The position numbers were made by a program, and so were the translations under genes. Positions 7,429 to 58,112 of a stretch of 64,000 nucleotides of DNA are shown here, in pieces. Numbering within the stretch: position 1 is the stretch's first letter; each line of letters starts with the position of its first letter. The notes under the pieces were generated by a model. That model saw only the letters and a program-made list of their open reading frames with translations. It did no database searches and was not told the DNA's origin. This DNA comes from an uncultured delta proteobacterium. Lineage in GTDB: Bacteria; Desulfobacterota; Deferrimicrobia; Deferrimicrobiales; Deferrimicrobiaceae. The stretch lies in NCBI GenBank assembly GCA_963811025.1, contig CAWEPX010000027.1, positions 219,745-283,744 of the forward strand, given 5' to 3'.

Positions 7429-8529
7429 TCACCCGCCTCCGCCGACCAGGAGCAGAACAAGCCCCGTCACGAAGATGTTCGCCAGCGACAGGGGGAGCAG
7501 TACCTTCCAACCCAGCTGCATCACCTGGTCGTACCGGAACCGGGGGATCGTCCACCGGACCCAGATGAAGAGCCAGGCGAAGAAGAGCAGTTTCCCCACG
7601 AACGCCCCGATCCGCAGGAGGAGCACCAGGGCGCCGGGAAGCCCGAGGGAGATTCCCCCGGGAAGCAGGAAGCCGGAGTCCGCCAGGTAGGGGAACTGCC
7701 AGCCGCCGAAGAACAGCGTCGCGATCAGGGCCGAGCCTACCACCATGTGGACGTACTCGGCCATGAAGAAGATCGAGAACTTGAAGGAACCGTACTCCGT
7801 GTGGTACCCCGCGACGATCTCCGACTCTCCCTCCGGCAGGTCGAAGGGGGTCCGGTTCGCCTCCGCGTAGACCGCCACGAGAAAGAGGAGAAACCCGAGC
7901 GGCTGCAGGAACACGCCCCACTTCGGCACGATCCCCCACAGGAGCTCCCCCTGCGAGGCAACGATATCCGAGAGCCGGACCGACTGGAAGACCATGACCA
8001 GGCCGATGATGGAGAGCCCGAGGGAGACCTCGTAGGAGATCATCTGCGCCGAGGAGCGCAGTCCCCCCAGCAGGGGATACTTGCTGTTGGAGGCCCACCC
8101 CGCGAGGATCACGCCGTAGACCGCCATCCCCGAGATGGCGAAGATGTAGAGGATCCCCACGTTCAGGTCCGCGACCTGCAGTGCGACCGGGCGTCCCGCG
8201 ATCACGACCGGCGGCCCGAAGGGGATGACCGCGAAGGTCATCAGCGCCGGGGCCAGGGCGAACATCGGCGCAATCTGGTAGAAGAGCCGGTGGGCGTGGT
8301 CCGGGATGAAGTCCTCCTTGAACAGGAGCTTGAGCGCGTCGGCGAGCGGATGGAACAGCCCTCCGAGGGTCAGCCCCAGGATCTTCGCCCGGTTGGGCCC
8401 GCGGCGGTCCTGGATATAGGCCGCTCCCTTGCGCTCCGCCCACACGAGGATCGGGACGAGGGAGAGGGTGAAGACGAGCATCACCGCCACCCGGGCCACG
8501 GACACCACGAGGTCGAACCACCCGTTCAT
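7429..8529 (-). CDS. nuoH: NADH-quinone oxidoreductase subunit H
   Basis: NuoH/ND1 family (…RRGPNRAKILGL…, …AEANRTPFDLPEGESEIV…). Confidence 0.95.
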   Translation of the reverse strand: MNGWFDLVVSVARVAVMLVFTLSLVPILVWAERKGAAYIQDRRGPNRAKILGLTLGGLFHPLADALKLLFKEDFIPDHAHRLFYQIAPMFALAPALMTFAVIPFGPPVVIAGRPVALQVADLNVGILYIFAISGMAVYGVILAGWASNSKYPLLGGLRSSAQMISYEVSLGLSIIGLVMVFQSVRLSDIVASQGELLWGIVPKWGVFLQPLGFLLFLVAVYAEANRTPFDLPEGESEIVAGYHTEYGSFKFSIFFMAEYVHMVVGSALIATLFFGGWQFPYLADSGFLLPGGISLGLPGALVLLLRIGAFVGKLLFFAWLFIWVRWTIPRFRYDQVMQLGWKVLLPLSLANIFVTGLVLLLVGGGG

Positions 8530-10106
8530 CCCTTCCCCCCTGCGACGTGTCCCGACTCACCAAGGGATTCGTAGCTCATCCCGGCGAAAGGGGCCTCGGA
8601 CCGCGCGATCGCCCGGAACACCGACGACTCCCCGGCGTATTTCCAGCCCGCACCGAGACGATTCGCAAGGCCCGTGATGATCTCGATGGCGTTCCTCGCC
8701 TTTCCCCTCGGGGGGAACCCCATCCAGAACCGCTGGACACGGCCCGCGTGGTTGGTGAACGTCCCCCCCCGCTCGATAAACGACGCGGACGGCATGACGA
8801 CGTGCGCCGCGCGGGAGACGGCCCCCTCGTTCGTCCCGACCTGTACGACAAACGGGACGTTGGCCAGAAGCCGCTCCGTCTCCTCCTCGGAGAAGTCGGC
8901 GATGCCGTTGCCGAAGGCCAGCAGGGCCTTCACCTTCCCGCCCGCAATCTTGCGCACGATATCTTCGAACTTCCCCTCGGAGATTCCCAGAAGTTGCGCC
9001 CCGCGGGTGTTGGGATTCTTGTCGGCCTTGATCAGGAAGTCGTCCGATATCCCGTTGCCCGGGGTCCGGGAGGAGAAGCCCAGGTTCGACGTGCGCAGGA
9101 CCTCGTCCGCCAGCTTCCGGGTGAGGTACAGTTCCTCGTTGGAGAATTGCGGCGACGCGATGACGGCGACCGATTCGGGGCCGTCCTTTTCCATCGTCTC
9201 CCAGAGCCGGAAGGCGGCGGCGGAAAAAACCGTTTCCCACGACTCCGCCCGGGGGATTCCGTCCTCCCGGACGACGGGGGTGAGCAGCCTCGCGTCGTTC
9301 GCCTTCTTGTACTCGAGGCGGCCCGGGTCGCACATCCACGCCTGGTTGACCTCGTCGTTCTGCCTGGGCTGGAAACGGTAGAGGATGTCCCCCTTGAAGT
9401 GCGCCTCCACGTTGCAGCCGTTGGCGCAGCCGGGGCAGATCGATCTGGCGCCCCGCAGGAACCAGACGCGGCACTTGAACCGGAAATCCTTGCTGGTCAG
9501 CGCCCCCACGGGGCAGATGTCCGCCAGGTTCCCGGTGTAGTTGTTGTTCAGCGGCTTCCCGGGGAAGATCGAGATCTCCGAGTGGTTCGACCGCTGGAAG
9601 AATTCGAGCTCGGAGGTATGCGTGACCTCCTGGAGAAACCGTATGCAACGGGAACAGAGGATGCACCGCTCGGCGTCCAGGACGATCTGGCCGCCGATCT
9701 CCTGCACCTTCTTCTTGTGGACCTTGTCCTCGAGGGCATAACGGCTCTTGTGCAGGCCGTACTTCATGTAGTAGATCTGCAGCCCGCACTCGCCCGCCTG
9801 GTCGCAGATCGGGCAGTCGATCGGGTGGTGGATGAGCATCAGCTCCAGAACGCCCGTGACCGCCTGCTTTACCTTCTCGGTATTGCTCTTGACCACCATC
9901 CCTTCCGTCACATGGGTGTTGCACGCGATCTGCAGCTTGGGGAACTTCTCCACCTCCACCAGGCACATGCGGCAGTTCCCCGCGATCGAGAGTTTCGGGT
10001 GGTAGCAGTAGTGGGGGATCTCGATCCCCACCGTCTTCGCGGCCTGGAGGATGGTCGTCCCGTCGGGGACGTCCACGGAGATTCCGTTGAGTGTAAAGTT
10101 CGGCAT
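8526..10106 (-). CDS. nuoG: NADH-quinone oxidoreductase subunit G, short 526-aa form
   Basis: N-terminal 2Fe-2S and 4Fe-4S cysteine motifs plus a molybdopterin-oxidoreductase-like domain; lacks the long C-terminal extension of E. coli NuoG. Confidence 0.9.
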   Translation of the reverse strand: MPNFTLNGISVDVPDGTTILQAAKTVGIEIPHYCYHPKLSIAGNCRMCLVEVEKFPKLQIACNTHVTEGMVVKSNTEKVKQAVTGVLELMLIHHPIDCPICDQAGECGLQIYYMKYGLHKSRYALEDKVHKKKVQEIGGQIVLDAERCILCSRCIRFLQEVTHTSELEFFQRSNHSEISIFPGKPLNNNYTGNLADICPVGALTSKDFRFKCRVWFLRGARSICPGCANGCNVEAHFKGDILYRFQPRQNDEVNQAWMCDPGRLEYKKANDARLLTPVVREDGIPRAESWETVFSAAAFRLWETMEKDGPESVAVIASPQFSNEELYLTRKLADEVLRTSNLGFSSRTPGNGISDDFLIKADKNPNTRGAQLLGISEGKFEDIVRKIAGGKVKALLAFGNGIADFSEEETERLLANVPFVVQVGTNEGAVSRAAHVVMPSASFIERGGTFTNHAGRVQRFWMGFPPRGKARNAIEIITGLANRLGAGWKYAGESSVFRAIARSEAPFAGMSYESLGESGHVAGGKG

Positions 10107-10112
10107 GGCTCC

Positions 10113-11384
10113 CTAGAACCTGTTCCCGTACGGGCACTTCTGGTCCCGGATGTGCTGGTCGAACTCCTCGCGAAACTTCCAGATGAACGACTGGGCGGGC
10201 ATCACCGCGGCGTCGGCGAGCGCGCAGATCGTCCTGCCCAGCATGTTGTCGCAGACATCCAGGATGAGCGCTACGTCCCCCTTGCGCCCCTGGCCGTTCT
10301 CGATGCGGTGCAGGATCTTCGCCAGCCAGCCGCACCCCTCCCGGCACGGAGTGCACTGCCCGCAGGACTCGTGGGCGTAGAAATTCATGAGCACGGAGAG
10401 GGCGCGGACCATGCAGGTCCCCTCGGGGATGACGATGACCCCGCTGGTGCCGGTCATCGTCCCTGCCTTCTGCATCGATTCGATGTCGAACGTCACGTCG
10501 ATCTCGTTGGCCCGGAGCACCGGCGTGGAGGACCCTCCCGGGATCACCGCCTTGAGCGTCTTTCCGTCCTTCAGGCCACCCGCGTGCGTGTAAATGACCT
10601 CCCGCAACGACACGGCGGCGGGCAGTTCGTAGATCCCGGGGCGGTTGACGGGCCCGCTGACACCCACGAGGCGCGTCCCGCCGTTCTTCTCGGCCCCGCC
10701 GAGGGCGTGGAACCGGTCGCCGCCGTGGGTGACGATCCAGGGAACGTCGGCGATCGTCTCCACGTTGTTCACGAGCGTGGGCCGCCCGAAAGCCCCCACC
10801 GAGGCGGGGAAGGGAGGCTTCACCCGCGGCCAGCCGCGCTTCCCCTCGAGGGAGTTGATCGTGGACGTCTCCTCGCCGCAGATGTAGGCGCCCGCGCCGC
10901 GGTGGATGGTCACGTCCAGGTCGAACCCGGCGCCGAGGATGTCTTTCCCGAGGAACCCCTTCGCGTACGCCTCGTCGACCGCCTCCTGCAGGATCCCCTC
11001 CTCCCGGGCGAATTCCCCGCGGATGTAGATGTAGCAGACATGGATCTCCAGGGCGTAGCAGGTGATGACGATTCCCTCGATCAGGAGATGGGGCCCCCGG
11101 CTCATGATCAGCCGGTCCTTGAACGTCCCCGGCTCTCCCTCGTCCGCGTTGATCACGAGGATCCGCGGCCTCGAGAGGTCCTTGGGGAGGAATCCCCACT
11201 TGACCCCTGCCGGGAACCCCGCGCCACCCCGCCCGCGCAGGTTCGCCTTCTTCACCTCTTCGACGATCGCCTCCTTCGACATGGAGAAGGCCTTCCGAAG
11301 GGCCTCGTACCCCCCGAGCTCCGTGTAGGTGTCGAGGTGGCGGTACCGCTCGTTGCCGAAGTGTTTGGTCAGGACGAGTTCCAT
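10113..11384 (-). CDS. nuoF: NADH-quinone oxidoreductase subunit F
   Basis: NuoF 51-kDa family (GRGGAGFPAGVKW, ...ESCGQCTPCREG). Start at MELVLTKHFG (ATG 11384). Confidence 0.95.
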   Translation of the reverse strand: MELVLTKHFGNERYRHLDTYTELGGYEALRKAFSMSKEAIVEEVKKANLRGRGGAGFPAGVKWGFLPKDLSRPRILVINADEGEPGTFKDRLIMSRGPHLLIEGIVITCYALEIHVCYIYIRGEFAREEGILQEAVDEAYAKGFLGKDILGAGFDLDVTIHRGAGAYICGEETSTINSLEGKRGWPRVKPPFPASVGAFGRPTLVNNVETIADVPWIVTHGGDRFHALGGAEKNGGTRLVGVSGPVNRPGIYELPAAVSLREVIYTHAGGLKDGKTLKAVIPGGSSTPVLRANEIDVTFDIESMQKAGTMTGTSGVIVIPEGTCMVRALSVLMNFYAHESCGQCTPCREGCGWLAKILHRIENGQGRKGDVALILDVCDNMLGRTICALADAAVMPAQSFIWKFREEFDQHIRDQKCPYGNRF

Positions 11385-11401
11385 CGTCTCCCGCCGCTCC
11401 G

Positions 11402-11875
11402 TCACCGGAGCCCGTCGAGGATCGCGTCGATCGATTCCTCGGTCAGGTTCTCGTAGTAGTCGTCGTTCACCTGCATGACCGGCGCGGTCCCGCAGCTTCC
11501 CAGGCACTCCACCGTGGAGAGGGTGAATCTCCCGTCGGCGGTCGTTTCGCCCGGCTTTACCCCGATCTTCCTCGCGACATGCTCGATCAGGTGCTCCGCG
11601 CCCATCAGGGAGCAGGAGAGGTTCCGGCAGACCTGCAGGTGGTATTTCCCCACGGGTTTCTTGTTGTACATCGTATAGAAGGTGGCGACCCCGTAGATGC
11701 GCGCCGGCGTGAACCCGAGCAGGTCGGCGACATACAGAATCGCTTCGTCGGACAGGTGCCCGAATTCGCGCTGCGCGAGGTAGAGTGTCGGCAAGATCGC
11801 CGCCTCCCGGTTGGGATAGCGAGCGAGCAACCTGTCGTGCTTCGCCCGGGTCTCCTCGGAAAAGGCGAGACTCAC
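11402..11875 (-). CDS. nuoE: NADH-quinone oxidoreductase subunit E (GTG start overlapping the nuoD stop)
   Basis: VSLAFSEETRAKHDRLLARYPNREAAILP...CLGSCGTAPVMQVND matches the 24-kDa subunit; the 2Fe-2S cysteines are present. Confidence 0.88.
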   Translation of the reverse strand: MSLAFSEETRAKHDRLLARYPNREAAILPTLYLAQREFGHLSDEAILYVADLLGFTPARIYGVATFYTMYNKKPVGKYHLQVCRNLSCSLMGAEHLIEHVARKIGVKPGETTADGRFTLSTVECLGSCGTAPVMQVNDDYYENLTEESIDAILDGLR

Positions 11876-13092
11876 CGGTCCAGCTCCCCCGCGATGATGT
11901 TGATGCTGCCCAGCACCGCGATCAGGTCCGCGATCATTCCCCCCTCGCACAGGTGCGGCATCCCCTGGAACAGGGGGAAGCACGGCGGCCGCACCTTGAT
12001 CTTGAAAGGCCCTCCGCCCCCCTTGCTGACGATGTAGTACCCGAGCTCCCCGTTCGCGGCCTCGGTGGCCGAGTAGACCTCGCCGGCGGGAACCTGGACG
12101 CCGTCCATGACGTGCTTGAAGTGGTTCATGAGGGCCTCGATGGTTTCGTAGACATCCTTCTTCGCCGGCAGGATGAACCTCGGGTCGTCCACGTTCACGG
12201 GCCCTTCCGGAAGCTGGTCGAGGGCCTGCTCGATGATGCGGAGGGACTGGCGCATCTCCTCCATCCGGACCATGTACCGGTCGCAGGTGTCCCCTTCCTC
12301 CCCGATCGGCACGTCGAAGTCGAATCGGTCGTACACGAGGTACGTCTCGTCCTTCCTGAGGTCCAGGGGCACCCCCGCGGCGCGCAGGCAGGGGCCGGTG
12401 AACCCGCGGGCGATCGCCTCTTTCGGAGTGATGGCTCCCACTCCCATCGTCCGCTCGATGAAGATCCGGTTCTTCGTCAGGAGGGCGTTCACGTCCGCGA
12501 TCGCGGGCACGATCACGTTCCGGCAGATGTCGCGGCACTTCTCGACCCACCCGTCGGGGAGGTCCCACATGAGACCGCCGATCCGCGTGTACGCAGTCGT
12601 CAGCCGGATCCCCGTCAGCGGCTCGATGAGGTGCCTGTACACCTCCTCGCGGGGCTTCCAGAAGTACCAGAAGTTGGTCAGCGCCCCGATGTCGACCATG
12701 TTCGTCCCGATGCAGACCATGTGGTCGATGATCCGGGAGAGCTCGCAGATGAGGACGCGGATGTACTGGCACCGCTCGGTGACCTCGACTCCGCACAGTT
12801 TCTCGACCGCCATCGCGTACCCGACGTTGTTCATCAGGGAGGAGACGTAGTTCAGCCGGTCCGTGTAGGGGATCACCTGGGTCCAGGTGGCGTTCTCGGA
12901 CTCCTTCTCGAAGCACCGGTGCAGGTACCCGAACTCGGGGGTGAGTTTGAGGATCGTCTCCCCGTCCAGTTCCGCGATGAGCCGGAGGGTGGCGTGCGTG
13001 GCCGGGTGCGACGGGCCGATGTTGAGGATCATCGGCTCGGCCTGCATGTCGAGCGTCCCGGATTCCCTCTGGTATGCCTCGATCTCCGCCAT
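11872..13092 (-). CDS. nuoD: NADH-quinone oxidoreductase subunit D
   Basis: 406 aa, 49-kDa subunit family (NIGPSHPATHA...). Confidence 0.95.
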   Translation of the reverse strand: MAEIEAYQRESGTLDMQAEPMILNIGPSHPATHATLRLIAELDGETILKLTPEFGYLHRCFEKESENATWTQVIPYTDRLNYVSSLMNNVGYAMAVEKLCGVEVTERCQYIRVLICELSRIIDHMVCIGTNMVDIGALTNFWYFWKPREEVYRHLIEPLTGIRLTTAYTRIGGLMWDLPDGWVEKCRDICRNVIVPAIADVNALLTKNRIFIERTMGVGAITPKEAIARGFTGPCLRAAGVPLDLRKDETYLVYDRFDFDVPIGEEGDTCDRYMVRMEEMRQSLRIIEQALDQLPEGPVNVDDPRFILPAKKDVYETIEALMNHFKHVMDGVQVPAGEVYSATEAANGELGYYIVSKGGGGPFKIKVRPPCFPLFQGMPHLCEGGMIADLIAVLGSINIIAGELDR

Positions 13093-30897: not shown

Positions 30898-32233
30898 TTA
30901 GATGATCTCTTTCTCTTCCAGCTCCTTGATGTGGGATCCGCTGAACCCGCACAGCTTGGCCAGGATGTGCTCGTTGTCCGCGCCGACCGGCTTGAAGGTC
31001 CACCGGACGCGGGGCGGCGTCTCGGACATCAGGCAGGGAAGCACCTGCGTCAGCACGTCGCCGAAGGTCGGGTCGTCGATCCAAGCCAGCGACCCGCGGA
31101 GGTGGAAGTGCTCCTGGTTCGAGACCTCCTTGGAGTTCCACACCGGCTGGGAGACGAGCCCGGCCTTCTTGAACTCTTCCCAGACCTGCTCTTTCGTCTT
31201 GTCTGCCGCCCACTTTTCGAGCTCGGGGTAGATGGCCACCTGCGCGTCCGCCCCTACCCGGTCCGCGTGGGTCGGGTATTTCTTCGCAAGGTCCGGCTTC
31301 CCGACGAGCTTGCAAAGATTCGCGAAGTCCTCGTCCTTGTAGGCCGAAACGAAGCAGAAGCCGACCTCCTGCTCCTGCGGGTTCTTCGAGTTCGGGTAGG
31401 ACGACTTCCCGCACTTTAAGATCCCGTGCACGCAAAGGAGCGGATCATAATTCCCGAACCGCTGTGCGACGATCCCCGTCCGCCCGTAGAGGGAGATGAG
31501 ATCGGTCAGGTGCCTCTGGGCGCCGTGCACCTGGGAATATTCCAGGAAGTTCCCCTTGCCCGAGACGTTGTCGCGCCAGTAGAGGCAGGCGATGATGTTG
31601 AAGGCCGAGATGGCGCCGCCCCAGTAGTCCATGATCCAGATGGTCTGCTTGGAGGGCATCCCGCCCATTTCCTTGTGCCATCCGGTGATCGAGAAGCAGC
31701 CGCCCTGGGCCTGGCCGAGGATGTCGTAGGAAGCGCGGTTCCGCCCCGGGCCCCAGCCGCCAAATCCCCCCATCCACTGGTAGATGACGCGGGGGTTGAC
31801 CTCGTGCATGCTGCCGGTACCCGATCCCCCAACGGTCGAAGGTGCCCGCCCGGTAGTTCTCGGCGAAGACGTCGGTCTTGGCCGCCAGCCGCTTCATGAT
31901 CTGGATCGCTTCCGGCTTGTGGAAGTCGAGCGACAGGAAATACTCGTTCGGGTTCGCGCCGAAGAAGCCCAGCCCCGTCCCCTTGTCCGGCATCCACCGG
32001 GAGAGGGGATAGAGGAACGGCTCGTTGAACGGCGTGGTGTGCCGCATCGGCTCGCCCCGCTTGGGCAGCTCGACCTTGATCGTCTCGGCGCCCAGCTCGG
32101 CGAGGTAGCTTGCGCAGGAGGGGCCGAGAATGTACTGGGTCGTGGAGACCGCCCGGATCCCTTTCAGGGTCTCGGGCTTCTCGAACCGCTTCGTCGTATC
32201 GAAAACGGTCCGACAGAAATCCTCGAACGTCAT
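30898..32233 (-). CDS. Family III CoA-transferase (CaiB/BaiF/Frc type), interrupted by a frameshift near 31806-31815
   Basis: N-terminal ORF 31445..32233 (...LGPSCASYLAELGAETIKVE..., ...AENYRAGTFDRWGIGYRQ) and C-terminal ORF 30898..31809 (HEVNPRVIYQWMGGFGGWGP...) together make a 445-aa CaiB-family protein. Confidence 0.85.
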
Positions 32234-32266: not shown

Positions 32267-33733
32267 TTAGATCACCCCTCCCTTCCGAAGAGCTGCCAGT
32301 TTCTCGCGATCCAGGCCGGCGAGGCGGCGATAGACGTCCTCGTTGTCCTGGCCGACCGTGCGGCCGATCCACTTGATCCGGCCCGGCGTGTTGCTGCCGA
32401 TGAAGCTGGAGGCCCCGAGGAGGACCTTCCCGTAATTGACGTCATCGCAGATCTCGATGTGGCCGCGGTATTTGTAATGCGGGAACTCGCACACCTCGTC
32501 GAGGAAGGAGACGCCTCCGGAAGCCACTTCCTCTTCCTGGAGCGCCTTCTCGCACTCGGCCCGGGTCTTGTCCTTGGTCCAGTCGCACATCGTGGTGTAG
32601 GTCTCGACCTGCATGTAGTGCGGCAGCCGGTCGGTCACCACGCGCAGCTTCGGGTCCTCGCAGATGTGCTGCTCGAGCTCGGGCCTGTCTTTCCCGACGG
32701 TCCGCCAGATCCGGAACCAGAGGCGGTCGTGCCCGCCGCCGACCATGATCTGCCCGTCGGCGCACGGGTTCACGGCATAGATGTTGATCGCCAGGTCCCA
32801 GTTCCCGTAGCGGGGTCGGACCGAGCCGTCCATCCCGTACCAGCCCCAGTTGTAGTCGATGATCCGCATGACGCCCTCGGCCGCCGTGCCTTCCACGAAC
32901 TGGCCTTTCCCGAGGAACTTCTCCCGGGCGTAGAGGGCCGCCATCGCGCCCATCGCCGCGAAGGTGCCGCCGACCTGGTCGGCGAGCCACCAGCCGGAGC
33001 GGGTCGGCGTCCCGCCGAACGACACCGGCGCACCGGTCCCGTGCATGAAGCCCATCGAGCACTGCCCGACCGGATCCATCGATACCCGGCTGGTCCTTGA
33101 GCGGGCCCCACTGGCCGCGCTCGCCCACCCAGAGGTAGATGAGCCGCGGGTTGATCTCGGAGAGCTGCCGGTAGCCGATCCCCAGCTTGTCGTAGTGCCC
33201 CGGGGGCGCGTTCTCGATCAGGATGTCGACCTGCGGGATGATCTGCTTCAGGAGCGCCTGGCCCTCTTTCGTCTCCACGTTGAGGGTGACGGAGAGCTTG
33301 TTTCTCGCCTCGGCGAGGAACCGGGGCTGCACTTCTCGCCGTTGGCTGCGGCGAACTTGTATTCCTCGCGTCCGAAAGGCGCCCACTGGCGAAGCGGGTC
33401 GCCGCCCGTCGGCTCGACCATGATGACCTCGGCTCCCAGTTCCGAGAAGTGGGAGGAGCACCAGTGGCCGATGATCTGGTTCGCCGTCATGTCCAGGACG
33501 CGGATTCCGTCCAGGGATTCCGGTTTGTCCGGGTTGAACTGCTGCCGGACCTGGGCCTCGACCCAGAGGGAATATTCCTTCCGTTTTTCGTCTACGCCCG
33601 CATATACCTCATCGACCGTCGGCGGCGGGAACGGCGGGCCACGGAAGGACCTTGATTGTCGGCCGTTTCTTTTCTGTACGCCACTTTTCAGCCATTCTCC
33701 CCCTCCTTGACAATTTTCCTTGCAACAGCACAC
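32267..33733 (-). CDS. Second family III CoA-transferase paralog, interrupted by at least 2 frameshifts (~33080-33090, ~33330-33345); start uncertain
   Basis: Pieces: ...LDGIRVLDMTANQIIGHWCSSHFSELGAEVIMVEP...; ...FLAEARNKLSVTLNVETKEGQALL...INPRLIYLWVGERGQWGP...; MDPVGQCSMGFMHGTGAP...LADQVGGTFAAMGAMAAL.... These match CaiB-family order; consecutive pieces join by single-base indels. Confidence 0.8.
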
Positions 33734-48667: not shown

Positions 48668-50173
48668 CTATTTTTCCTTCTTCATCTTCCGTTTCCATGC
48701 CAGGTCGAGCCATTCGTTCATGTCGCGGATGTTCCGGGAGAGGTACCAGCGTCCGTTCGCGAAAACCCCGTAATCGGCTCCGGCCATCGCGGAGGCAAAG
48801 CGGGTGGAATTCGCGAAGAATAGCCACTGTTCCACCCACATCTTCTCGATCGGTTCGTTGAAGATGCTGTCGTTCTGCGCAAGTCCCTTCGCCACCCCCC
48901 TCTCCCAGGCGACAAGGAGGATGTTCGTGGCGGCCAGGGTCATCTCGTTCGTGGTCCGGATCGTTTCCTCGAAGCGGGCGAAATGCCCTTCCACCCAGTT
49001 TCCGCCGTGGCAGCCGGAACAGATCTTCTGTATCTTTGCCGTCCGGTCTTTCCCTTCCTGGGCACTGATCAGATACGACGACGCTGGCTCGCCGGTGAGC
49101 TCGGTGGGAAGAGGAAGACCTGCCTTGTTCCGGATCACCGTGGTGTCCGGGGACAGCGGGTGGGGGTGGGCATAGACGGGTCCGAAGATCCGCCAGGCCT
49201 GACGGTCGTTCATCTGGTGGGAACGTTCGGCGATGATCTCCGGTTGGTCGCCCTCCCCGCCGACCAGGAGACTCACGTGGCAGGCGGCACAGGTGGGAGC
49301 GGTAAAATCCGTACCGATCTTCCAGGGGACGCTCGTAAAGTCCCACGTGTCTCCGAGAGAGGAATAGATATTCCCGTGCTTGCTTACCAGGTAGACGGGG
49401 TAGGCGGGTACGTCCGGCCCCTTGTGGCACTCGGAGCAGGTGGCGGGATTCCTGGCCACCTTGATTGAGAACTGGTGCCGGGTGTGGCAGGACGTGCAGG
49501 ATCCCTTCGAGTCATCGGGATTGATGCGCCCCACCCCCTGGTTCGGCCACCCCGATAAAACGGGAAACGCCATTTCCCCCATCGCGGTCTCACGTTGCCG
49601 CATCCCCGACACCCCGATCACGGTTCCATGGCAATAGAAGCAGGCGTCGGCGTTTGTCTGATCCGAGGGAGAGGTGAGCCCGATCGTTCCGTCGCTGAAG
49701 GCATACGTGCCGTTCACCTGATCCACGAGCCCGTGGTAAACCGCGTTGTTGTTCAGGTTCGCGTATGCATGGGACATGATGTTCCGGGAATATTGCATTG
49801 TCTCCTCGGGATGACAGGTGGAGCAGTCCGGGGGGCTGACAACGATATGTACGCGATGCCCGTTGTGGTCGAAGGTGCCCTTGTGGGTATCCGGCTTCAG
49901 CGTGTGACATTCGGCACATCCAACGACCGTTTTCAGCAACGTTTCGGGTACGCTCTTCGCCGATACTCTCCTCTGGAGAGCCGGTTTTTTCAACCCTTCC
50001 TCGGGGGTCACCCGGGAATGGAGGGAACGCTTCCAGTCGGCGACGATCCCCGGGGTGACATCCGCATGGCAGGACAGGCATTCTTCGGTCTTATCACTCA
50101 CCGGGGGAGACGCGATCGCTGCAGAGGCCCCAATGAACAGAAAGGTCAGAACACGGAGAGATGCCTTTTGCAT
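48668..50173 (-). CDS. Octaheme c-type cytochrome, HAO/ONR/OTR superfamily
   Basis: Signal peptide MQKASLRVLTFLFIGASAAIA. Eight CxxCH (CLSCH, CAECH, CSTCH, CFYCH, CTSCH, CSECH, CAACH, CSGCH); 501 aa. Confidence 0.75.
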   Translation of the reverse strand: MQKASLRVLTFLFIGASAAIASPPVSDKTEECLSCHADVTPGIVADWKRSLHSRVTPEEGLKKPALQRRVSAKSVPETLLKTVVGCAECHTLKPDTHKGTFDHNGHRVHIVVSPPDCSTCHPEETMQYSRNIMSHAYANLNNNAVYHGLVDQVNGTYAFSDGTIGLTSPSDQTNADACFYCHGTVIGVSGMRQRETAMGEMAFPVLSGWPNQGVGRINPDDSKGSCTSCHTRHQFSIKVARNPATCSECHKGPDVPAYPVYLVSKHGNIYSSLGDTWDFTSVPWKIGTDFTAPTCAACHVSLLVGGEGDQPEIIAERSHQMNDRQAWRIFGPVYAHPHPLSPDTTVIRNKAGLPLPTELTGEPASSYLISAQEGKDRTAKIQKICSGCHGGNWVEGHFARFEETIRTTNEMTLAATNILLVAWERGVAKGLAQNDSIFNEPIEKMWVEQWLFFANSTRFASAMAGADYGVFANGRWYLSRNIRDMNEWLDLAWKRKMKKEK

Positions 50174-50399: not shown

Positions 50400-51740
50400 C
50401 TACGGCGTTGCGGATTGCGGCGGCGGGGCGGTCTGTACCACGTTGTCGTTTGCGGCCTGCTCATCCCCCTCGTACGCGGGCTGCAGCCATCCCAGCGCGT
50501 CCACGACCGGATCGGTAAGCCAGTAATCGGCATACGCGGCCGCGTGGCAGTTGTTGCAGTCCGACACATTGAACGAGGCATAGACGGCTGTGCCGATTAC
50601 GTTCCTCTGGATATTGTGCGGCGTCGCATATTTCCACGTCGGCCGTGCCGTCATGTCGGGAATGAGTCCGTTGAGGGCCAGAGCCCCGCTGTACTGGAAC
50701 ACGTCGTTGTCCACGGGGACGTGGCGGAGCACGGCGTACTTCTTGTGCGCCGTATCCCCTGTCCCCAGCCACCTCGGATTTTTTCCGACCCGGATGGTCA
50801 TGAGGGCGTCCGGCGCAGACCCTTCCGGCCGGACGGCGAGCGTCGGGTCTCCCTCGTTGATGCGGTAGAAGGGGAGATCGGTGCCTCCCGCGTCGATGTC
50901 CGTATGGCAACCGAAGCAGTTCTTGTAGGGCTGCGCGTGGCATACCTGGCAATCCATGGTGGCCAGGTGGCCCGCGCTGTGCAGAGTGTTCGTCCCTGCC
51001 ACAACGTGGCAGTTCGCGCACTGGGGCGTTCCGGCGACGTCGTACCGGTCGCCGCTGCCCGCCGGATCCGGCACACCGGTTCCGTGCATCTCTGCCTCGC
51101 TGTGGCAGAAGACACAGCCTTTCGGGAGGCCGGTCGTATTGTCAATCGCCTGCGTCCGGGCGAAATGGACGTCGGGCAGAACGTTCGCCAGGCCCAGGTC
51201 GTTCCTCCCGATGAGCGCGTTGTTGAGGCCGAAGAACTCGTCCTTCACCCGGCTCCCGTGACATGCCGTGCAGTTTCGCTCCATGTCCGGGGTGTAGCGG
51301 AAGTTGTGCCCGTTCAGGAATCCGCCTCCCGCGACCTGCGGTACCGAAACGTGGCAGAAACCACAGGCGGGCTGCGCGCTGCCATTGGCGATGTGGCACT
51401 TGGTGCACTGCTCGTCGAACCGGGCCCTGGACTCGGTGTTGTCGGTGAAATCGAACCCCCGGTCGCCCAGGATCTTCACATAGCCCCCCAGCGTGGTATG
51501 CAGGCTCGATGCGCTGGCGGTCGCGATGGTCTGGGTGGCACCGATCGCGCTGCATGTGTCCGCCCCGGGGATCGATTCCCACGTATTGTCGTGCGCCGCG
51601 GCCCTCGTGGAGGCGGTGTCGTCGCCGCCGTGGCAGGCCGTGCAGCTCTGCGACCCGTGGGGGTTCGTGTTGTCGAGGAAGTTATCCGGATACTGCTCGA
51701 TCAGGCCGTTGTAAACCCAAATCTTTTTTTGCGCCGGCAC
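50400..51740 (-). CDS. Nine-heme c-type cytochrome with no signal peptide of its own (GTG start, or fused to the upstream ORF through an in-frame TGA)
   Basis: Nine CxxCH (CTACH, CTKCH, CGFCH, CTACH, CVFCH, CANCH, CQVCH, CFGCH, CNNCH). N-terminus VPAQKKIWVYNG is not hydrophobic. In frame with ORF 51759..53033, separated only by a TGA plus 6 codons. Confidence 0.75.
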   Translation of the reverse strand: MPAQKKIWVYNGLIEQYPDNFLDNTNPHGSQSCTACHGGDDTASTRAAAHDNTWESIPGADTCSAIGATQTIATASASSLHTTLGGYVKILGDRGFDFTDNTESRARFDEQCTKCHIANGSAQPACGFCHVSVPQVAGGGFLNGHNFRYTPDMERNCTACHGSRVKDEFFGLNNALIGRNDLGLANVLPDVHFARTQAIDNTTGLPKGCVFCHSEAEMHGTGVPDPAGSGDRYDVAGTPQCANCHVVAGTNTLHSAGHLATMDCQVCHAQPYKNCFGCHTDIDAGGTDLPFYRINEGDPTLAVRPEGSAPDALMTIRVGKNPRWLGTGDTAHKKYAVLRHVPVDNDVFQYSGALALNGLIPDMTARPTWKYATPHNIQRNVIGTAVYASFNVSDCNNCHAAAYADYWLTDPVVDALGWLQPAYEGDEQAANDNVVQTAPPPQSATP

Positions 51741-51758
51741 GGACGCAACTTCTCCGCC

Positions 51759-53033
51759 TCAGCCCTCGCCCGACGAGGGCGGGGTGACGACGCCCGCCGC
51801 CGGAAATTTCTCCAGTTCGGTCCAGAGGGCGGTCAGGCTCGTGTGGCATCCCTGGCATCCCGTGGACGGCGGTGTATAGACGGCCAGATTGTCGATGCCT
51901 CCCCCCCAGTTGTGCAGCGGGAAGTCCCATCCCCTGTTCAGATCGAAGTTCACCAGTTGGCCGGAGGACGGTGCGGTGGTGCTCCAGCCGTTCATTCCGT
52001 ACAGGAGGTTCTTCGCATCGTATCCCAGGATCCCGAGCGCCATGGTGGACAGGGATCCCGTGTGCCCCGTGTAGCAGTAGGCGACGATCGGCTTCCCGGG
52101 GGCAACCGCGAACTTCGTGTAGTTCACAAGATCCGCGACCGACTTGTAGGGGATGTTGATGGCTCCGGGGATGTGCCCGGCATCGTAGACGTCGGCCGCC
52201 CGGACGCTGATGATCTGGGGATCATTGGCGGCGTCGCCGTCTTCCAGGTTGTCCGCCAGGGTCTTCGGGTAGACCTGAAGGTCGAACTGGGTGGGGACGG
52301 AGTTCAGGTAATCCCCGGCACGCACCAGAATCTTCTTCACCAGCGTATCCGTAACCGGTGTGAAGGAGGCATAGCGCGGATACGCACCCTGATCCGTCCC
52401 GGCATTCGTCCCGGCCTCCGTGGCTTTCTGCACGGTGACCACCCCGGCCCCGTCGTCGAAGCGCGTGTTCGAGGGAACCAGCGTCCTGTCGAAGGACCAG
52501 GAGGTCATTCCCGCGAAGAGAGCCGTGGACCGGGGAAAGTTGCCGGGATTCGCCGGGTCCGTGATGCGGGCGAGGTTGATGACCAGGCTGGCCATGTTGC
52601 CGTCGTTCCCCCAGTAGGAAGCCACGACGACCTCCTTGTCCGCAGGAATCCCGGAGGTCCCGTCGAGCAGGGCCTGGGGAAGCGTCTGGAGGGGGATGTT
52701 GATCGCGCCGGGGATGTGTCCCGCGGCAAAGTCGGCAGGCTCCCGGGTGTCGACCACGAAAAGGTCCTCGGGAGCTTTCGTGTTGTCGAGACCGCTCAGC
52801 TGTTTCATGACCACGTCGGGGTTCGTCGTGTTGTAGCCGAGAGCCAGCACCGCGTTGACCCTCTCGGCGATCTCCTGGAGATCGGCACTGGGCGTCGTGC
52901 TCGTGCCGACGACGGACCCCGAAACCGGCGGGGCAGAGGAGGTGCCGCCGCCACCGCCGTTGCACCCCGCGAGGAGCAAGGGAATGCACAGGGCAACCAC
53001 CGTCAGCCCATGAATTATTCGACGTTTGTCCAA
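51759..53033 (-). CDS. Lipoprotein with tandem rhodanese domains and a C-terminal CQGCH heme motif (TTG start)
   Basis: Lipobox LLLAGC. Rhodanese domains (...VVDTREPADFAAGHIPGAINIP...; ...AADVYDAGHIPGAINIPY...AYCYTGHTGS with the active-site Cys). C-terminal ...STGCQGCHTSLTALW. SD GGAGG upstream of TTG 53033. Confidence 0.75.
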   Translation of the reverse strand: MDKRRIIHGLTVVALCIPLLLAGCNGGGGGTSSAPPVSGSVVGTSTTPSADLQEIAERVNAVLALGYNTTNPDVVMKQLSGLDNTKAPEDLFVVDTREPADFAAGHIPGAINIPLQTLPQALLDGTSGIPADKEVVVASYWGNDGNMASLVINLARITDPANPGNFPRSTALFAGMTSWSFDRTLVPSNTRFDDGAGVVTVQKATEAGTNAGTDQGAYPRYASFTPVTDTLVKKILVRAGDYLNSVPTQFDLQVYPKTLADNLEDGDAANDPQIISVRAADVYDAGHIPGAINIPYKSVADLVNYTKFAVAPGKPIVAYCYTGHTGSLSTMALGILGYDAKNLLYGMNGWSTTAPSSGQLVNFDLNRGWDFPLHNWGGGIDNLAVYTPPSTGCQGCHTSLTALWTELEKFPAAGVVTPPSSGEG

Positions 53034-53340: not shown

Positions 53341-53574
53341 TTACCAATCCTCCTTGAACGGGAGAATAACGTCGTAGTGCCTCTCGTAGTCCGCAGGGGA
53401 ATGAAGCCTTGCCTTTTTTTCCTGCAGCAGATCGTTGATCGCGTGATGGATAAATGATCGAAGATCCTCCCGGGAAATGGATGCCCTGGCGAGGTGGACA
53501 TTGCCACACGGAGTGTCCGGCCGCATCCCTTGTGGCGGAGAAATCATCCACGAATTAATATTCTCGCATTGCAA
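53341..53574 (-). CDS. Possible small protein (C-terminal ~45 aa look protein-like); low confidence
   Basis: ...ASISREDLRSFIHHAINDLLQEKKARLHSPADYERHYDVILPFKEDW; lower GC than surroundings, no clear SD, alternative start codons. Confidence 0.25.
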   Translation of the reverse strand: MQCENINSWMISPPQGMRPDTPCGNVHLARASISREDLRSFIHHAINDLLQEKKARLHSPADYERHYDVILPFKEDW

Positions 53575-53643
53575 AGAAGGGGTTCTGCCGGAACGAAGAA
53601 AGCAAGTATAATTGTATTCAATTCCAAATCAAGAGGACTCTTC

Positions 53644-54202
53644 ATGAAGATCGACCCGCTCGTATTCTCCGCGAAGTTCCCTGACCGCTGCCGGCTCGAC
53701 CTGTGCCGGAGCAGGTGCTGCCGTTTCGGCGTCTGGGTGGACATCGAGGAGCAGGAGACGATTATCGCGAACCAGGAAACTCTTCACTCCCTACCTTCGC
53801 CCGGAGGCGAAGGACCCCGGGACGTGGTTCGGCAAGACGGAGGAGGACCCGGATTGCCCGAGCGGGTTGGCCGTGGAGACGCAGGACATCGCGGGAGCGT
53901 GCTCCTTTTATCACCCGGCGCACGGTTGCGTACTGCAGAAAGGCGCCGTCGAGGCAGGCCTCCACGAGTGGATCATCAAGCCGCGGTTCTGCATCATGTT
54001 CCCCCTTGTCGTCTCCGGCGGGGAACTGACGGTCGATGACGACATGAAGAACCTGTGGTGCATGAAGGGAAAGAACCGGACCCGCCCCATCCTCGAGGCC
54101 GTGCGGAAAGAGGTGGAGTTCCTGTTCGACGAGGAACAGCGCCGAAGGCTGTGCGCAGAAGAGGAGTCGCTCCCGGCCGTAAAGGCCCGGGGAAGGCGCT
54201 AG
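53644..54202 (+). CDS. YkgJ/UPF0153-family Fe-S/zinc-chelating CxxCxxCC protein, interrupted by a frameshift at ~53795-53802
   Basis: MKIDPLVFSAKFPDRCRLDLCRSRCCRFGVWV... then, after removing one G in cccggagg, ...PEAKDPGTWFGKTEEDPDCPSGLAVETQDIAGACSFYHPAHGCVLQ...PRFCIMFPLV.... Confidence 0.7.
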
Positions 54203-54269
54203 GGAGCGGGACCACCCCTCGACATACAACACGAAACCGGATTGTCCCCGATGACTTGCGTCGTCGCTT

Positions 54270-57114
54270 TCATGCGAGGGCGCGCCGCCCTTCCCTTCTT
54301 CCCAGAACCTTCCGCAGAAACCGCCCCGTGTGGGAGCGCGGGTTTTCCGCAACCTCCTCGGGCGTACCGCACGCGACCACATGGCCGCCCCGGTCTCCCC
54401 CCTCCGGACCCAGGTCGATGATGTAGTCGGCCGTCTTGATCACGTCCAGGTTGTGCTCGATGATGATCACCGTGTTCCCCGACTCCGCGAACATCTGGAG
54501 CACCGAGAGCAGCTTCCGGATATCGTCGAAATGCAGGCCCGTGGTGGGCTCGTCGAGGAGGTAGACGGTTTTCCCCGTCGCCCGCTTCGAGAGTTCCCGG
54601 GCGAGCTTCACCCGCTGCGCCTCGCCTCCGGAAAGGGTCGTGGCGGGCTGTCCGAGGCGGATGTAGCCCAGCCCCACCCGGGAGAGGGTGGAGAGCTTCT
54701 GCCGGATCGCCGGGATGTTCTCGAGGAAGGGCAGGGCCTGGTCGACCGTCATGTCGAGCACGTCGGCAATCGTCTTCCCCTTGTAGGCGATCTCGAGGGT
54801 CTCGCGGTTGTACCGCTTTCCCCGGCAGACCTCGCACGTAACGTAGACGTCCGGCATGAAGTGCATCTCGATCTTGATGATGCCGTCCCCCTCGCACGCC
54901 TCGCAGCGGCCTCCCTTGACGTTGAACGAGTACCGCCCGGGCCGGTAGCCGCGCGCCCTGCTCTCCGGGAGCATCGCGAAAAGGTCGCGGATCGGGGTGA
55001 AGGCGCCGGAGTACGTGGCCGGGTTGGACCGGGGAGTCCGGCCGATCGGCGACTGGTCGATGTTGATCACCTTGTCGACGAGCGAAAGCCCCCCGAGGGC
55101 GTCGTAGGCACCGGGCCGGTCTCGGGAGCCGTAGATCTTCTGCGCGAGCGCCCGGTAGAGGGTGTCCAGGACCAGTGTCGATTTTCCCGACCCGGAGACG
55201 CCGGTGACGCAGGTGATGACCCCGAGCGGGAAGGAGACGTCGAGGTTCTTCAGGTTGTTCGCCGCGCACCCCGCAAGCGTGAGAAAGTTCCCGTTCGGCC
55301 GCCGCCGGGTCGCAGGAACCGGAATCTCCTTCCTCCCCGACAGGTAGAGCGCGGTGAGGGAGACGTCGCTTTCCAGGATCCTCCCGGGCGGCCCCGCCGT
55401 GACGACGTGACCGCCGTGCTCGCCCGCACCGGGGCCCATGTCGATCACGTAGTCCGCCTGACGGATCGTCTCTTCGTCGTGCTCGACCACCAGGACCGTG
55501 TTGCCCATGGTCGCGCAACTGCTTCAACGTGTCGAGCAGCCTGCGGTTGTCCCGCTGGTGCAGCCCGATGGACGGCTCGTCGAGGATGTACAGGACTCCC
55601 ATCAGCTGCGAGCCGATCTGCGTCGCCAGGCGGATCCGTTGCCCTTCCCCGCCCGAGAGCGTGGAAGAGGCCCGGTCGAGGGAGAGGTAGTCGAGTCCCA
55701 CGTTCGCGAGGAAGGAAAGTCGTGACCGAATCTCTTTCCGTATCCGCGCAGCGATCTGCTCCTCCCGTTCCGTGAGGGACAGGCCCTGGAAGAAGGCGAG
55801 GGATTCCCCGATGGAGAGCCGGGTGATCCCGTCGATTCCCAACCCCCCCACCGTGACGCACAACGCCTCCTTCTTGAGGCGGGCTCCCCCGCACGCCCGG
55901 CACGGGCGGTTGTTCATGTACCGGCCGAGCTCCTCCCGCACGCTTTCCGAATCGGTTTCCCGGAATCGCCGCTCCAGGTTTCCGATCACCCCCTCGAACG
56001 GCTTGGAGAAGGAGTAGCGACGCTCCCCTTCCTCCAGCGAGAAACGGACCGTCTCCCCTCCCGACCCGGAAAGAAGGGCCTCCCGGGTCCGGGCCGGGAG
56101 TTTCCCGAACGGCTCGTTCAGGGAGAACCCGTAGTGGACCGACAGCGCATCGAGCATCTGGAAGTAGAAGACCGTCGACCTCCTGCTCCAGGGGGCAATC
56201 GCTCCCTCCCGGATGCTTTTCTCCCTGTCGGGGACGATCAGGTCGGGATCGAAGTAGATCGTCGTCCCCAACCCGTCGCACTCCGGGCACGCCCCGTAGG
56301 GGCTGTTGAAGGAGAAAAGCCGAGGCGTGATTTCCGGGTAGCTCACGTTGCAGTCGGGGCAGGCGAACTTCTCGCTGTAGAGGGTGCCGTTTCCCTCCCC
56401 GTCGACGATGCGCACCAGCCCGTCGGAGAGGGAGAGGGAGAGCGCCACGGAATCGGACAATCTTCCCCGCGCCCCCTCCGAGACCCGCACCCGGTCGACC
56501 ACCACATCGATGTGGTGCTTCCTCTTCCTGTCGAGGACGATCTCTTCGTCCAGGCTTCTGGCCTCGCCGTCCACGAGGACCCGGGAGAACCCTTCCCGGG
56601 CGAGCTTGACAAGCTCTCTCCGGTATTCGCCCTTACGGCCCCTGACGATCGGGGCCAGAACCTGCACCTTCTCCCCGGCGCCCAATCCCATCACGGCATC
56701 GACGATCTGGGATACGGTCTGCTGGCGGATTTCCCGACCGCAGGAAGGGCAATGGACGACCCCGACCGATGCGTAAAGAAGCCGCAGGTAGTCGTAGATC
56801 TCGGTGACGGTCCCCACCGTCGACCGCGGGTTCTTGCTGACCGACTTCTGCTCGATGGAGATGGCGGGGGAGAGCCCCTCGATCGCGTCGACGTCGGGTT
56901 TTTCCATCTGCTCGAGGAACTGTCGTGCGTAGGCGGACAGGGACTCGACATACCGTCGCTGTCCCTCCGCGTAGATCGTGTCGAAGGCGAGCGACGACTT
57001 CCCCGACCCCGAGACCCCGGTGATCACGACCAGACGATCCCGGGGGATCTCCACGTCGATATTCTTCAGGTTGTGCTCCCGCGCCCCGCGCACGAGGATC
57101 CGGTCGAGCGCCAC
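54270..57114 (-). CDS. uvrA: Excinuclease ABC subunit A, interrupted by an extra base in a C3/G3 run (~55504-55506); GTG start
   Basis: N-terminal half ...[62 protein letters not shown]...; C-terminal half [15 protein letters not shown]...[12 protein letters not shown]...[12 protein letters not shown].... They join as ...[16 protein letters not shown]. Confidence 0.92.
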
Positions 57115-57119
57115 GGCGT

Positions 57120-58112
57120 CTACCTTCTCGCGGCAGCCATGCCCGCGGCCATGCGGAGGGCGGCCAGAAGGCTTTTGGGGTTGGCCGTCCCCTTGCCCGC
57201 GATGTCGTAGGCGGTGCCGTGATCGACCGAGGTGCGGATGATGGGGAGGCCCATCGTCACGTTGACGCCGTCCTCGAAGTGGACAAGCTTCAGGGGAATG
57301 AGACCGTGATCGTGCGTCATCGCAACCACCACGTCGAACTCCCCCCGGTACGCGCGGTAGAAGACGGTATCGGGGGGATAGGGGCCCGTCGCGTCGATTC
57401 CTTCCCTGCGGCAGGCGGAAACCGCCGGTGCTACCATCGTTTTCTCCTCGTCGCCGAACATCCCTCCCTCGCCCGCATGCGGGTTCAGCCCCGCCACGGC
57501 GATACGGGGAGCGTCCGTACCCATGTGCGCCCGGAAGAATGCATGCGTAATCCGGATGGTACGTACGATGAGCGCGGGAGAAAGAAGTTCCAGGGCTTTC
57601 CGCAGGCCGATATGGATGGTGACCAGCGCGACACGGAGGCGGGACCCCGCAAGCATCATCGCGACCTCCGCGCCGCCGCACAGGTCGGCGAGGAACTCGG
57701 TGTGGCCCGGGAAAGGTTCGCCGGCCGTTTTCAGCCCCTCCTTCGTGATCGGGCAGGTGACCACCGCGTCGGTTCGCCCTGCAATCGCGTCCCGGGCCGC
57801 CGCCCGGATGTAGTCCGCCATCGCATGGGCCCCCGCCCCCGAGAGCCTTCCGAACGGCACATCGTCCAGGGAAAGGGAAGAGATCGGCGCAACGACGATC
57901 CTGCCCGGTCCAGGCTCCCCGGCTTTTGCCACTTCGGTCGGCCTTCCCAGGACGGCCGAAGCCCGCCGCAGGATATTTTCGTCCCCGTACACCACAGGGC
58001 GACAAACGGAGAAGATCTCCGGGGACAGATGCGCAAGGACGATGATCTCCGGGCCGATCCCTGCCGGGTCCCCCATCGTGACGGCGATTTTCGGCCGTGT
58101 TTCCTTCTTCAA
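57120..58112 (-). CDS. pdxA: 4-hydroxythreonine-4-phosphate dehydrogenase
   Basis: 330 aa; ...[16 protein letters not shown]...GHTEFLA...[10 protein letters not shown].... Confidence 0.88.

Follow-up and report, generated by a model that had tools for sequence, protein, structure and literature searches.

Two adjacent open reading frames (ORFs) on the minus strand of a 64,000-nucleotide stretch of DNA from an uncultured delta proteobacterium of the Deferrimicrobiaceae (GenBank assembly GCA_963811025.1, contig CAWEPX010000027.1, positions 219,745 to 283,744 of the forward strand; hereafter the window, numbered from its first letter) are separated by an in-frame TGA, the upstream ORF encoding a rhodanese-domain lipoprotein and the downstream ORF a multiheme c-type cytochrome. 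Judging from the sequences of this locus and its relatives, it is very likely that the two parts are translated as one selenocysteine (Sec)-containing protein. That they constitute a single gene, extending from 53033 to 50400 and specifying an exported Sec lipoprotein of about 877 residues with sulfane-sulfur chemistry, we hold to be probable. A preliminary description of the same DNA had proposed a single exported rhodanese-multiheme lipoprotein of ~870 residues, and that proposal is supported by the conservation of the TGA, by a hairpin associated with it, and by homologues in which a Cys codon renders the reading frame continuous.

The arrangement first described for the locus, with its minus-strand orientation, in-frame TGA, intervening GGEVAS codons and GTG at 51740, was confirmed. 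A Pfam scan of the upstream ORF matched PF00581 in two stretches (90.6 bits against a cutoff of 22.2, E = 9.8e-26); on reading the sequence, the first rhodanese domain is seen to have no Cys at the active-site position, and the second carries the loop CYTGHTG. Past the TGA the same frame continues through six sense codons (GGEVAS) and the GTG and stays open through to a TAG, and the GTG is an internal Val codon, not a start. The downstream part contains nine intact CXXCH motifs and one disrupted CX4CH, so that the whole read-through product in the window has 10 intact heme motifs and one disrupted, and its N-terminus is not hydrophobic. The lipobox export signal reaches the cytochrome part solely upon read-through of the UGA, and it is the read-through product that combines several CXXCH motifs with an N-terminal export signal, as is usual for a multiheme c-type cytochrome. 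From N- to C-terminus, the predicted protein would consist of the lipoprotein signal, an inactive rhodanese, an active rhodanese, heme 1, about 30 residues, the loop SSGEG-U-GG, a further 30 or so residues, and then ten more c-type hemes. Because TGA is the ordinary stop of many other window ORFs, the genetic code is standard and not reassigned; a window-wide scan for a second TGA flanked by coding sequence gave no convincing candidate.

A search with the cytochrome part retrieved 844 relatives, the best 120 of which were inspected for starts and signal peptides, and DNA was fetched for the best 79 loci of 554 relatives among GTDB species representatives (labelled L001 onward, with phylum names as in the deposited records). 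Reading upstream from the cytochrome in its own frame, one meets TGA as the first stop in 76 of the 79 loci, in the context S-x-G-[EVPA]-G-TGA-G-G-x-V. The exceptions are L057 and L063, both with Cys, and L020, where the match begins at query residue 123 and the upstream stretch is unlike coding sequence. TGA-bearing loci span more than 10 phyla, including Deferrimicrobiota, Ca. Deferrimicrobium/Deferrimicrobiaceae, Desulfobacterota, Desulfuromonadales, Anaeromyxobacter, Planctomycetota, Actinomycetota/Thermoleophilia, many Chloroflexota, KSB1, Calditrichota, Eisenbacteria, spirochaetes (Spirochaetota) and Bacillota; the closest relative among the fetched loci is L017, at 92-95% identity. Furthermore, a heme motif lies 27-34 residues ahead of the TGA in every locus with complete sequence, and the complete upstream ORFs begin with a long hydrophobic run in 60 of 73 cases and carry a lipobox-like motif in 53 of 73. 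The best 120 cytochrome homologues, on the other side of the TGA, start at assorted ATG, GTG or TTG codons just past it, and none of the 120 has a signal peptide, as the preliminary description had observed for the window copy, correctly. In a profile search for the family, E <= 0.001 admitted 1242 representatives of 50%-identity clusters, of which 459 reached E <= 1e-10. With the TGA at the homologous codon in 76 of 79 independent loci, the arrangement is far beyond chance. Of the causes previously offered for the TGA, recoding as Sec stands, whereas a substitution during sequencing and a nonsense mutation of recent date are both ruled out by the same TGA with the same flanking codons in 76 of 79 loci of many phyla. 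GG-TGA-GG-GG also occurs at additional sites in L031, L041, L052, L077, L080 and L065, which were set aside as random and non-coding.

Full-length homologues with a sense codon at the TGA position had been suggested as a check on the fusion. A search with the concatenated protein gave one apparent full-length fusion, P0001 (946 aa, 95% coverage, with an added PKD domain), which was rejected as an artefact of ORF calling: in a three-frame translation of its locus (L001, JGI Ga0436546_0000063, 10001-12841) the frame that was called makes no sense from heme 1 to heme 3, and the homologous frame reads …PESVGEG-TGA-GGSVEPVPAPKKVW…, with two frameshifts flanking its Sec region. A split Thioredoxin_3 gene in L001, tried as a second selenoprotein, has its CxxC intact and its stop elsewhere and was not used. 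Genuine Cys-codon forms do exist: L057 (Calditrichota) and L063 read …AGEGCGG… in a single unbroken ORF headed by a lipoprotein signal. Searching with a profile of the junction region brought up a further case, P0255 (L081), which reads …DSGEGCGGSVPQLEVWEK… and has TGT in the contig at the Sec position, and Cys stands at this position in P0320, P0338, P0365, P0373 and P0383 as well (profile matches with N-terminal extensions). P0331 and P0336 have a Cys-Cys doublet there, and among distant members Trp (TGG, one base off TGA) is found in P0332 (GEGWAG), P0312 and P0375, and His in P0341. The pattern of Trp, His and Cys-Cys members suggests repeated loss or replacement of a predicted Sec.

A hairpin resembling a selenocysteine insertion sequence (SECIS), another check that had been suggested, is present downstream of the TGA and displays compensatory covariation. 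With columns numbered from the U of UGA as 1 and two clades treated separately, the rhodanese-fused clade (the window and L001-L019) can pair columns 14-20 with 27-33, enclosing the loop CGUGCC, and the short-N-terminus clade pairs columns 13-20 with 24-31, enclosing the loop GUU. Standard pairs occupy 96.8% of cells in the rhodanese-fused clade, with compensatory changes in five of seven pairs, and 90.2% in the other, with compensatory changes in seven of eight; no shuffle out of 500 matched these values in either clade, and slid-partner controls gave just 29-57% pairing. The commonest swap, G:C for C:G at columns 16/28 (28 versus 23 sequences), turns an encoded Ala…Pro into Pro…Ala, and because the encoded residues are altered, selection acts on the RNA rather than on the protein, such that the SECIS constraint shapes the protein sequence. 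The published bacterial SECIS (bSECIS) model (PMC13188914) specifies a loop of 3-9 nt opened by G then G/U, a stem of 4-16 bp, 16-37 nt from UGA to loop, and a minimum free energy of <= -7.5 kcal/mol. The window hairpin lies inside all of these limits, with G-U at loop positions 2-3, 17 nt from UGA to loop, and -8.8 kcal/mol, and the energy limit is satisfied throughout one clade (18 of 18 sequences) and by 50 of 55 sequences in the other. Folded to its energy minimum (-9.0 kcal/mol), the 22-nt stretch that holds the window hairpin closes the loop differently from the hairpin named here. The hairpin signal resides in covariation, not in energy.

The machinery for Sec insertion is encoded beside the family gene in a few genomes. 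In L011, selA, for selenocysteine synthase (TIGR00474, 450 bits), and selB, for the Sec-specific elongation factor (TIGR00475, 374 bits), lie directly upstream, and the pair is also found within 6 kb of the gene in L008 and L038, the three loci belonging to unrelated lineages (Desulfuromonadales, an actinomycete metagenome-assembled genome (MAG), and a Bacillota MAG). A search for tRNA and tmRNA genes found none in the window or in five related loci, and no tRNA-Sec in the selA-selB loci.

An alignment of the core of 72 Sec forms, in which Sec is 99-100% conserved, contains 11 invariant CXXCH-type heme motifs and 10 invariant non-motif His, with no other conserved Cys, Met or Lys. Eleven motifs set against ten His leave one heme with no conserved His to serve as its sixth ligand. 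Sec probably lies at this heme or ligates it, and from the alignment we infer that it is the sole conserved candidate to occupy or guard the sixth position there. By motif count, the number of hemes in the family is 11 (1 + 10). The decaheme protein proposed earlier is thus accurate as a tally of intact motifs in the window, but not as the true state of a family whose other members have 11. The window has 10 because its heme-2 CX4CH, at 51554-51531, is disrupted by a -1/+1 indel pair that removes the Cys-His. Where the window reads CSAIGATQ, the other members of its 90%-identity cluster that cover the stretch read CSA-x-GCHP (CX4CH) in 12 of 12 cases, and the DNA of L017 reads TGCAGCGCGATCGGGTGCCACCCGGCC; compared with relatives, the window has lost one base after GG and gained one G ten bases later. 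Additional window genes are damaged: uvrA is split by a frameshift, with the UvrA sequence carrying on in another frame after …LKQLRD; a DUF3109-like gene appears split into two overlapping frames; and two CoA-transferase family III ORFs are N-terminally truncated and match only the C-terminal two-thirds of the Pfam profile. The damage to the DUF3109-like gene and the CoA-transferase ORFs likely reflects further frameshifts. All of these are assembly errors of the indel type, and the heme-2 lesion is probably one more, an error of consensus or assembly; otherwise it would be a strain-specific lesion. The indel errors carry no bearing on the TGA, which is a conserved codon.

A number of observations weigh against reading the gene as that of a Sec-dependent sulfur enzyme. 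The isolated window hairpin attains a mere -8.8 kcal/mol with one G-U pair included, an 81-nt fold around the UGA (9 nt upstream included) is no stabler than shuffles (z = 0.57), and the hairpin is absent from the minimum-energy fold of those 81 nt. No Rfam SECIS or relevant family was found in the whole window at the gathering threshold, or in 51500-52000 at E <= 10, and three Cys forms keep 6-8 of 8 hairpin pairs, with no hairpin decay seen after conversion to Cys. There is no Sec machinery and no tRNA-Sec within the 64-kb window, and the competence of the organism for Sec is presumed. With regard to function, which we infer from domain association alone, a Foldseek comparison of a heme-free structure model with the PDB found no similar fold. 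Finally, if the heme-2 damage is real, the window copy could be impaired.

Table 1. Coordinates of the predicted selenoprotein gene, of other features of the window, and of features in related loci.
Sequence	Feature	Position	Strand	Remarks
Window	N-terminal part of predicted selenoprotein	51762..53033	-	424 aa; TTG start at 53033 behind GGAGG ribosome-binding site
Window	Lipobox LLAGC (…CIPLLLAGC)	52976-52962	-	Lipoprotein signal of upstream ORF
Window	Active rhodanese loop CYTGHTG	52076-52056	-	Second rhodanese domain
Window	Heme-1 motif CQGCH	51857-51843	-	Near end of upstream ORF
Window	In-frame UGA, predicted Sec residue 425	51759..51761	-	Motif SSGEG-U-GGEV
Window	SECIS-like hairpin UUGCGUC-CGUGCC-GGCGCAA	51729..51748	-	7-bp stem, 6-nt loop
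Window	C-terminal multiheme part	50400..51758	-	452 codons plus TAG (50402-50400); no signal peptide of its own
Window	Indel-damaged heme-2 CX4CH	51531..51542	-	GCHP -> GATQ compared with relatives
Window	Octaheme HAO-like ORF	48668-50173	-	Own signal peptide
Window	Split uvrA	54270-55508, 54199-58005	-	Frameshift near 55500-55510
Window	Split DUF3109-like gene	53494-54202	+	
Window	CoA-transferase family III ORFs	30901-31809, 32270-33079	-	
L011	selA-selB	133-3041		
L008	selA-selB	10161-13053		
L038	selA-selB	35-2144		
L019	YedF/YedE/PhsC-like context	84-2685, 7669-8076		
L046	YedE-like proteins and cytochrome b	9584-12170		
L074	YedE-like matches	899-1975		
L033	Chloroflexota/KSB1-type example locus	7094-7945		
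L052	Chloroflexota/KSB1-type example locus	1138-2433		
L044	Chloroflexota/KSB1-type example locus	1628-4156		

A rhodanese is fused to the cytochrome or encoded nearby in at least 64 of 77 loci. It is fused at the N-terminus in 16 loci (the window included) and at the C-terminus in L054 and P0366, and a separate rhodanese gene lies within 3 kb in 48 further loci. Cytochrome-only fragments (P0123, P0125, P0140 and others) bear the IMG name 'thiosulfate/3-mercaptopyruvate sulfurtransferase', probably by transfer of annotation from C-terminally rhodanese-fused members like P0366 and L054.

Other neighbours differ between the clades. Directly downstream of the window gene is an octaheme ORF matching Multi-haem_cyto (PF13447), with hydrazine dehydrogenase as its best NCBIfam match (64 bits versus a cutoff of 900); beyond it lie ORFs of DUF134-like and NifX-like type and a PAS/sigma-54 activator. 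The preliminary description had made this HAO/OTR-like octaheme part of the architecture; no HAO-like octaheme stands beside the family gene in any of the related loci tested, nor are the DUF134 and NifX-like genes conserved with the family there, and the octaheme appears incidental. A sigma-54 activator gene is near the family gene in 9 loci; a search for sigma-54 promoters upstream of 53033 gave nothing usable, the window containing 11 matches versus 15.5 expected. In the rhodanese-fused clade the gene mostly stands alone and neighbourhoods are not conserved. In other clades, of the Chloroflexota/KSB1 type, four kinds of neighbour recur: a LysR regulator in 19 loci, a large multiheme cytochrome in 17, an NrfC-like 4Fe-4S protein with a Tat signal in 15, and a membrane protein resembling NrfD in 8. 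These names were assigned by reading the N-terminal sequences of the clusters rather than by a family-model scan. Taken together, such neighbours point to a quinol-oxidising module supplying electrons to the enzyme.

One central question is what such a protein would do. As the anatomy of the site implies, SelB with Sec-tRNA(Sec) would recognise the hairpin and insert Sec at the UGA, and the product would be exported through the Sec-translocon by its single N-terminal lipoprotein signal, to be anchored at the outer face of the cytoplasmic membrane or in the periplasm. There, the rhodanese Cys would take sulfane sulfur from polysulfide or thiosulfate as a persulfide, and the selenolate on the flexible Gly-rich loop would attack the persulfide to form a Se-S intermediate. 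Electrons passing along the 11-heme chain, which in other lineages may be fed by the NrfC-like and NrfD-like neighbours, would then reduce the Se-S adduct, with release of sulfide. We give reduction of sulfane sulfur or polysulfide somewhat less than an even chance of being the chemistry involved. It is more doubtful that Sec is itself the sixth ligand, or the sole catalytic side chain, at a c-type heme (His/Sec or a Sec-gated open heme) in a rhodanese-wired terminal reductase of sulfane sulfur, polysulfide or selenium.

Alternatively, Sec could be inserted but serve a different substrate or direction, namely thiosulfate or sulfide oxidation in the manner of TsdA and SoxAX, or selenium handling such as selenite reduction or trafficking, which we consider possible though rather unlikely. 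This alternative draws on the surroundings of the gene in an Anaeromyxobacter MAG (L019), where it is flanked by YedF, a sulfurtransferase-like protein of selenium metabolism (TIGR03527, 112 bits versus a cutoff of 110), by YedE/TsuA-like membrane proteins and by a PhsC-like cytochrome b resembling a thiosulfate reductase subunit, and in part on those in an Ardenticatenaceae MAG (L046), with YedE-like proteins and a cytochrome b and no YedF match, and in L074, with weaker YedE-like matches only. Such contexts hint at a link to thiosulfate or selenium, but occur in just 2-3 of the 79 loci. Rhodanese domains are able to carry selenium besides sulfur, and there is weak NCBIfam similarity to ExtH and ExtM of the selenite/tellurite reduction operon, although the scores of 15 and 26 bits are far under the cutoffs of 200 and 800. 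The Sec-dependent polysulfide reductase MccSep, compared below, also reduces selenite (PMC13510729). As for oxidation, the family has no conserved heme-ligating Cys of the TsdA/SoxAX type.

It is improbable that the UGA is read through without Sec, by a near-cognate tRNA that inserts Trp, Cys or Arg with stimulation from the hairpin, which would still yield a fused protein. Trp does stand at the homologous position in the distant members P0332, P0312 and P0375, and Sec incorporation in the family is a prediction from sequence. However, the position of the hairpin, the size of its loop and the G-U with which the loop opens all fit a SelB-type bSECIS; Cys is the commonest sense replacement, as in other selenoprotein families; selA-selB are adjacent in three loci; and if an ordinary residue were all that the site called for, there would be no point in keeping a UGA over more than 10 phyla.

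Less probable still is the division adopted by gene callers everywhere, with the TGA a genuine stop between a rhodanese-monoheme lipoprotein and a separate cytochrome that starts at GTG 51740. In its favour, each of the 120 inspected homologues is an ORF by itself, ~440 aa long, a GGAG stands 11 nt ahead of the GTG, and the truncated upstream product is probably made under selenium scarcity. On this model, however, the downstream ORF would lack an export signal although heme attachment is periplasmic. Moreover, the supposed start codons vary and fall at different codons among homologues, whereas the six to eight codons from the TGA to these starts are conserved as protein and always share the frame; the GGAG simply represents conserved Gly-Gly-Glu codons, and Cys forms are single ORFs. 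We give almost no credence to an explanation of the TGA by faulty sequencing or assembly, or by a nonsense mutation of recent date (leaving a pseudogene or a mis-called sense codon). The window does have indel errors (in uvrA, the DUF3109-like gene and two CoA-transferase ORFs, and the -1/+1 pair inside the gene itself), but these are not substitutions, and the same TGA is found in 76 independent assemblies from different technologies and different phyla. An A7 run proposed as a further error site at 51721-51727 in fact lies at 51730-51724; it codes for a conserved Q-K-K and is identical in L017, so that it is no such site.

As far as the databases and literature searched show, this family falls outside known groups. 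No model in NCBIfam (release 20.0, June 2026) or Pfam covers it, with matches to generic cytochrome c3/c7 motif families only, and a full-text search for selenoproteins with multiheme, undecaheme or rhodanese features found no description of it. The genome paper on Ca. Deferrimicrobium mentions neither Sec nor rhodanese (PMC9386147). It thus appears that a large rhodanese-coupled undecaheme selenoprotein family has gone uncatalogued and is routinely annotated as two genes. The earlier characterisation as previously undescribed accordingly holds for the family models and literature searched, with the qualification that an unrelated analogue, MccSep, was published in 2026. One consequence is that the best 120 database entries are truncated, signal-less 'cytochrome c3 family' fragments, which distort both counts of signal-less cytochromes and selenoproteome censuses. 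For Ca. Deferrimicrobium borealis, 22 of 32 multiheme cytochromes were reported with signal peptides, and 'no known reductases for sulfur compounds' were reported for such lineages (PMC9386147). The family would add to these lineages a candidate sulfur or selenium respiratory enzyme. If the proposed function is true, it would represent an unrecognised terminal reductase in Chloroflexota, Planctomycetota, Actinomycetota, Deferrimicrobiota, KSB1 and others not credited with sulfur respiration. The combination of G-x-G-TGA-G-G with the hairpin provides a simple search key for re-annotation.

Comparison with known heme enzymes gives little beyond heme motifs. PDB sequence searches, whether run from the single protein or from the family profile, yielded heme-motif-level matches only, and similarity to HAO and NrfA chains of the HAO/NrfA superfamily is weak and at that level too (E = 0.004-0.06). 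TsdA and SoxAX, cited in the MccSep paper as diheme thiosulfate oxidisers with His/Cys-ligated catalytic hemes (PMC13510729), share the idea of a chalcogen side chain at the heme sixth position for S-S chemistry, and a His/Sec or open site is plausible here; no homology to them was detected past the heme motifs (SoxA 1h31, E = 1.2). TsoB (NF045694) scores 14.7 bits on the family protein versus a cutoff of 805. Among selenoproteins tabulated in a 2026 review (PMC13188914), cytochromes are limited to ExtKL, the GSU2204 family and OTR-type octahemes, and rhodanese selenoproteins have Sec in the rhodanese active site (UxxS, UxxG, CxU). The TIGR04315 octaheme, NF041027 (GSU2204) and rhodanese-like forms 1-5, TsoB among them, resemble the present family in joining bacterial Sec to heme or rhodanese and in being recognised by UGA plus bSECIS, but the rhodanese of the window family retains Cys and the Sec is in the cytochrome module. 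Neither the read-through protein nor a natural Cys form scored above threshold with any of the TIGR04315, NF041027 or rhodanese-like models.

In the Sud-Psr system of Wolinella succinogenes, a periplasmic rhodanese-like polysulfide-sulfur transferase feeds polysulfide reductase. The family resembles this system in coupling a rhodanese-type carrier to a predicted sulfane-sulfur reductase, and the fusion or adjacency of the rhodanese suggests the same division of labour. The differences are that Psr is a molybdopterin enzyme (PsrABC) and uses neither heme nor Sec for catalysis, and that Sud is separate, soluble and unfused.

The best functional analogy is MccSep (GSU2937-2936/ExtKL) of Geobacter sulfurreducens, described in Sci Adv in 2026 (PDB 9wt8/9wt9) as the long-sought Geobacter sulfur reductase, a Sec-dependent multiheme polysulfide reductase and the first multiheme selenoenzyme, in which Sec beside a heme with an unusual sixth ligand reduces polysulfide and, less well, selenite (PMC13510729). 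In the window family, too, Sec would attack a chalcogen substrate near an unusual-ligand heme. Both are exported multiheme c-type cytochromes whose two annotated ORFs are joined by an in-frame UGA with a SECIS-like hairpin, both occur as Sec and Cys variants, and both are tied to sulfur chemistry; MccSep has no fused rhodanese, but its ext gene cluster also holds a rhodanese lipoprotein, ExtH. Homology between the two is undetectable, with the family profile missing 9wt8 and 9wt9 at E <= 10 (both in the library searched) and NF040886 unmatched. MccSep has 5 hemes versus 11, and its Sec belongs to a D-G-U-P loop in an Ig-like domain close to the C-terminus, whereas that of the window family lies between hemes 1 and 2 in G-x-G-U-G-G. 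The phylum ranges differ too: MccSep is found mainly in Desulfobacterota and Nitrospirota, and the window family is frequent in Chloroflexota, Planctomycetota, Actinomycetota, KSB1 and others as well. A heme-ligating Cys, Cys239, is conserved in MccSep, and the window family has no conserved extra Cys. If the proposed active site is correct, a natural His/Sec or Sec-gated heme would contrast with the Cys-ligated heme plus Sec of MccSep, and the arithmetic of 11 hemes and 10 His makes a Sec-ligated or Sec-gated heme directly testable. That a second, unrelated family of predicted Sec cytochromes spans more than 10 phyla points to Sec-heme chalcogen chemistry as a recurrent and ecologically broad solution.

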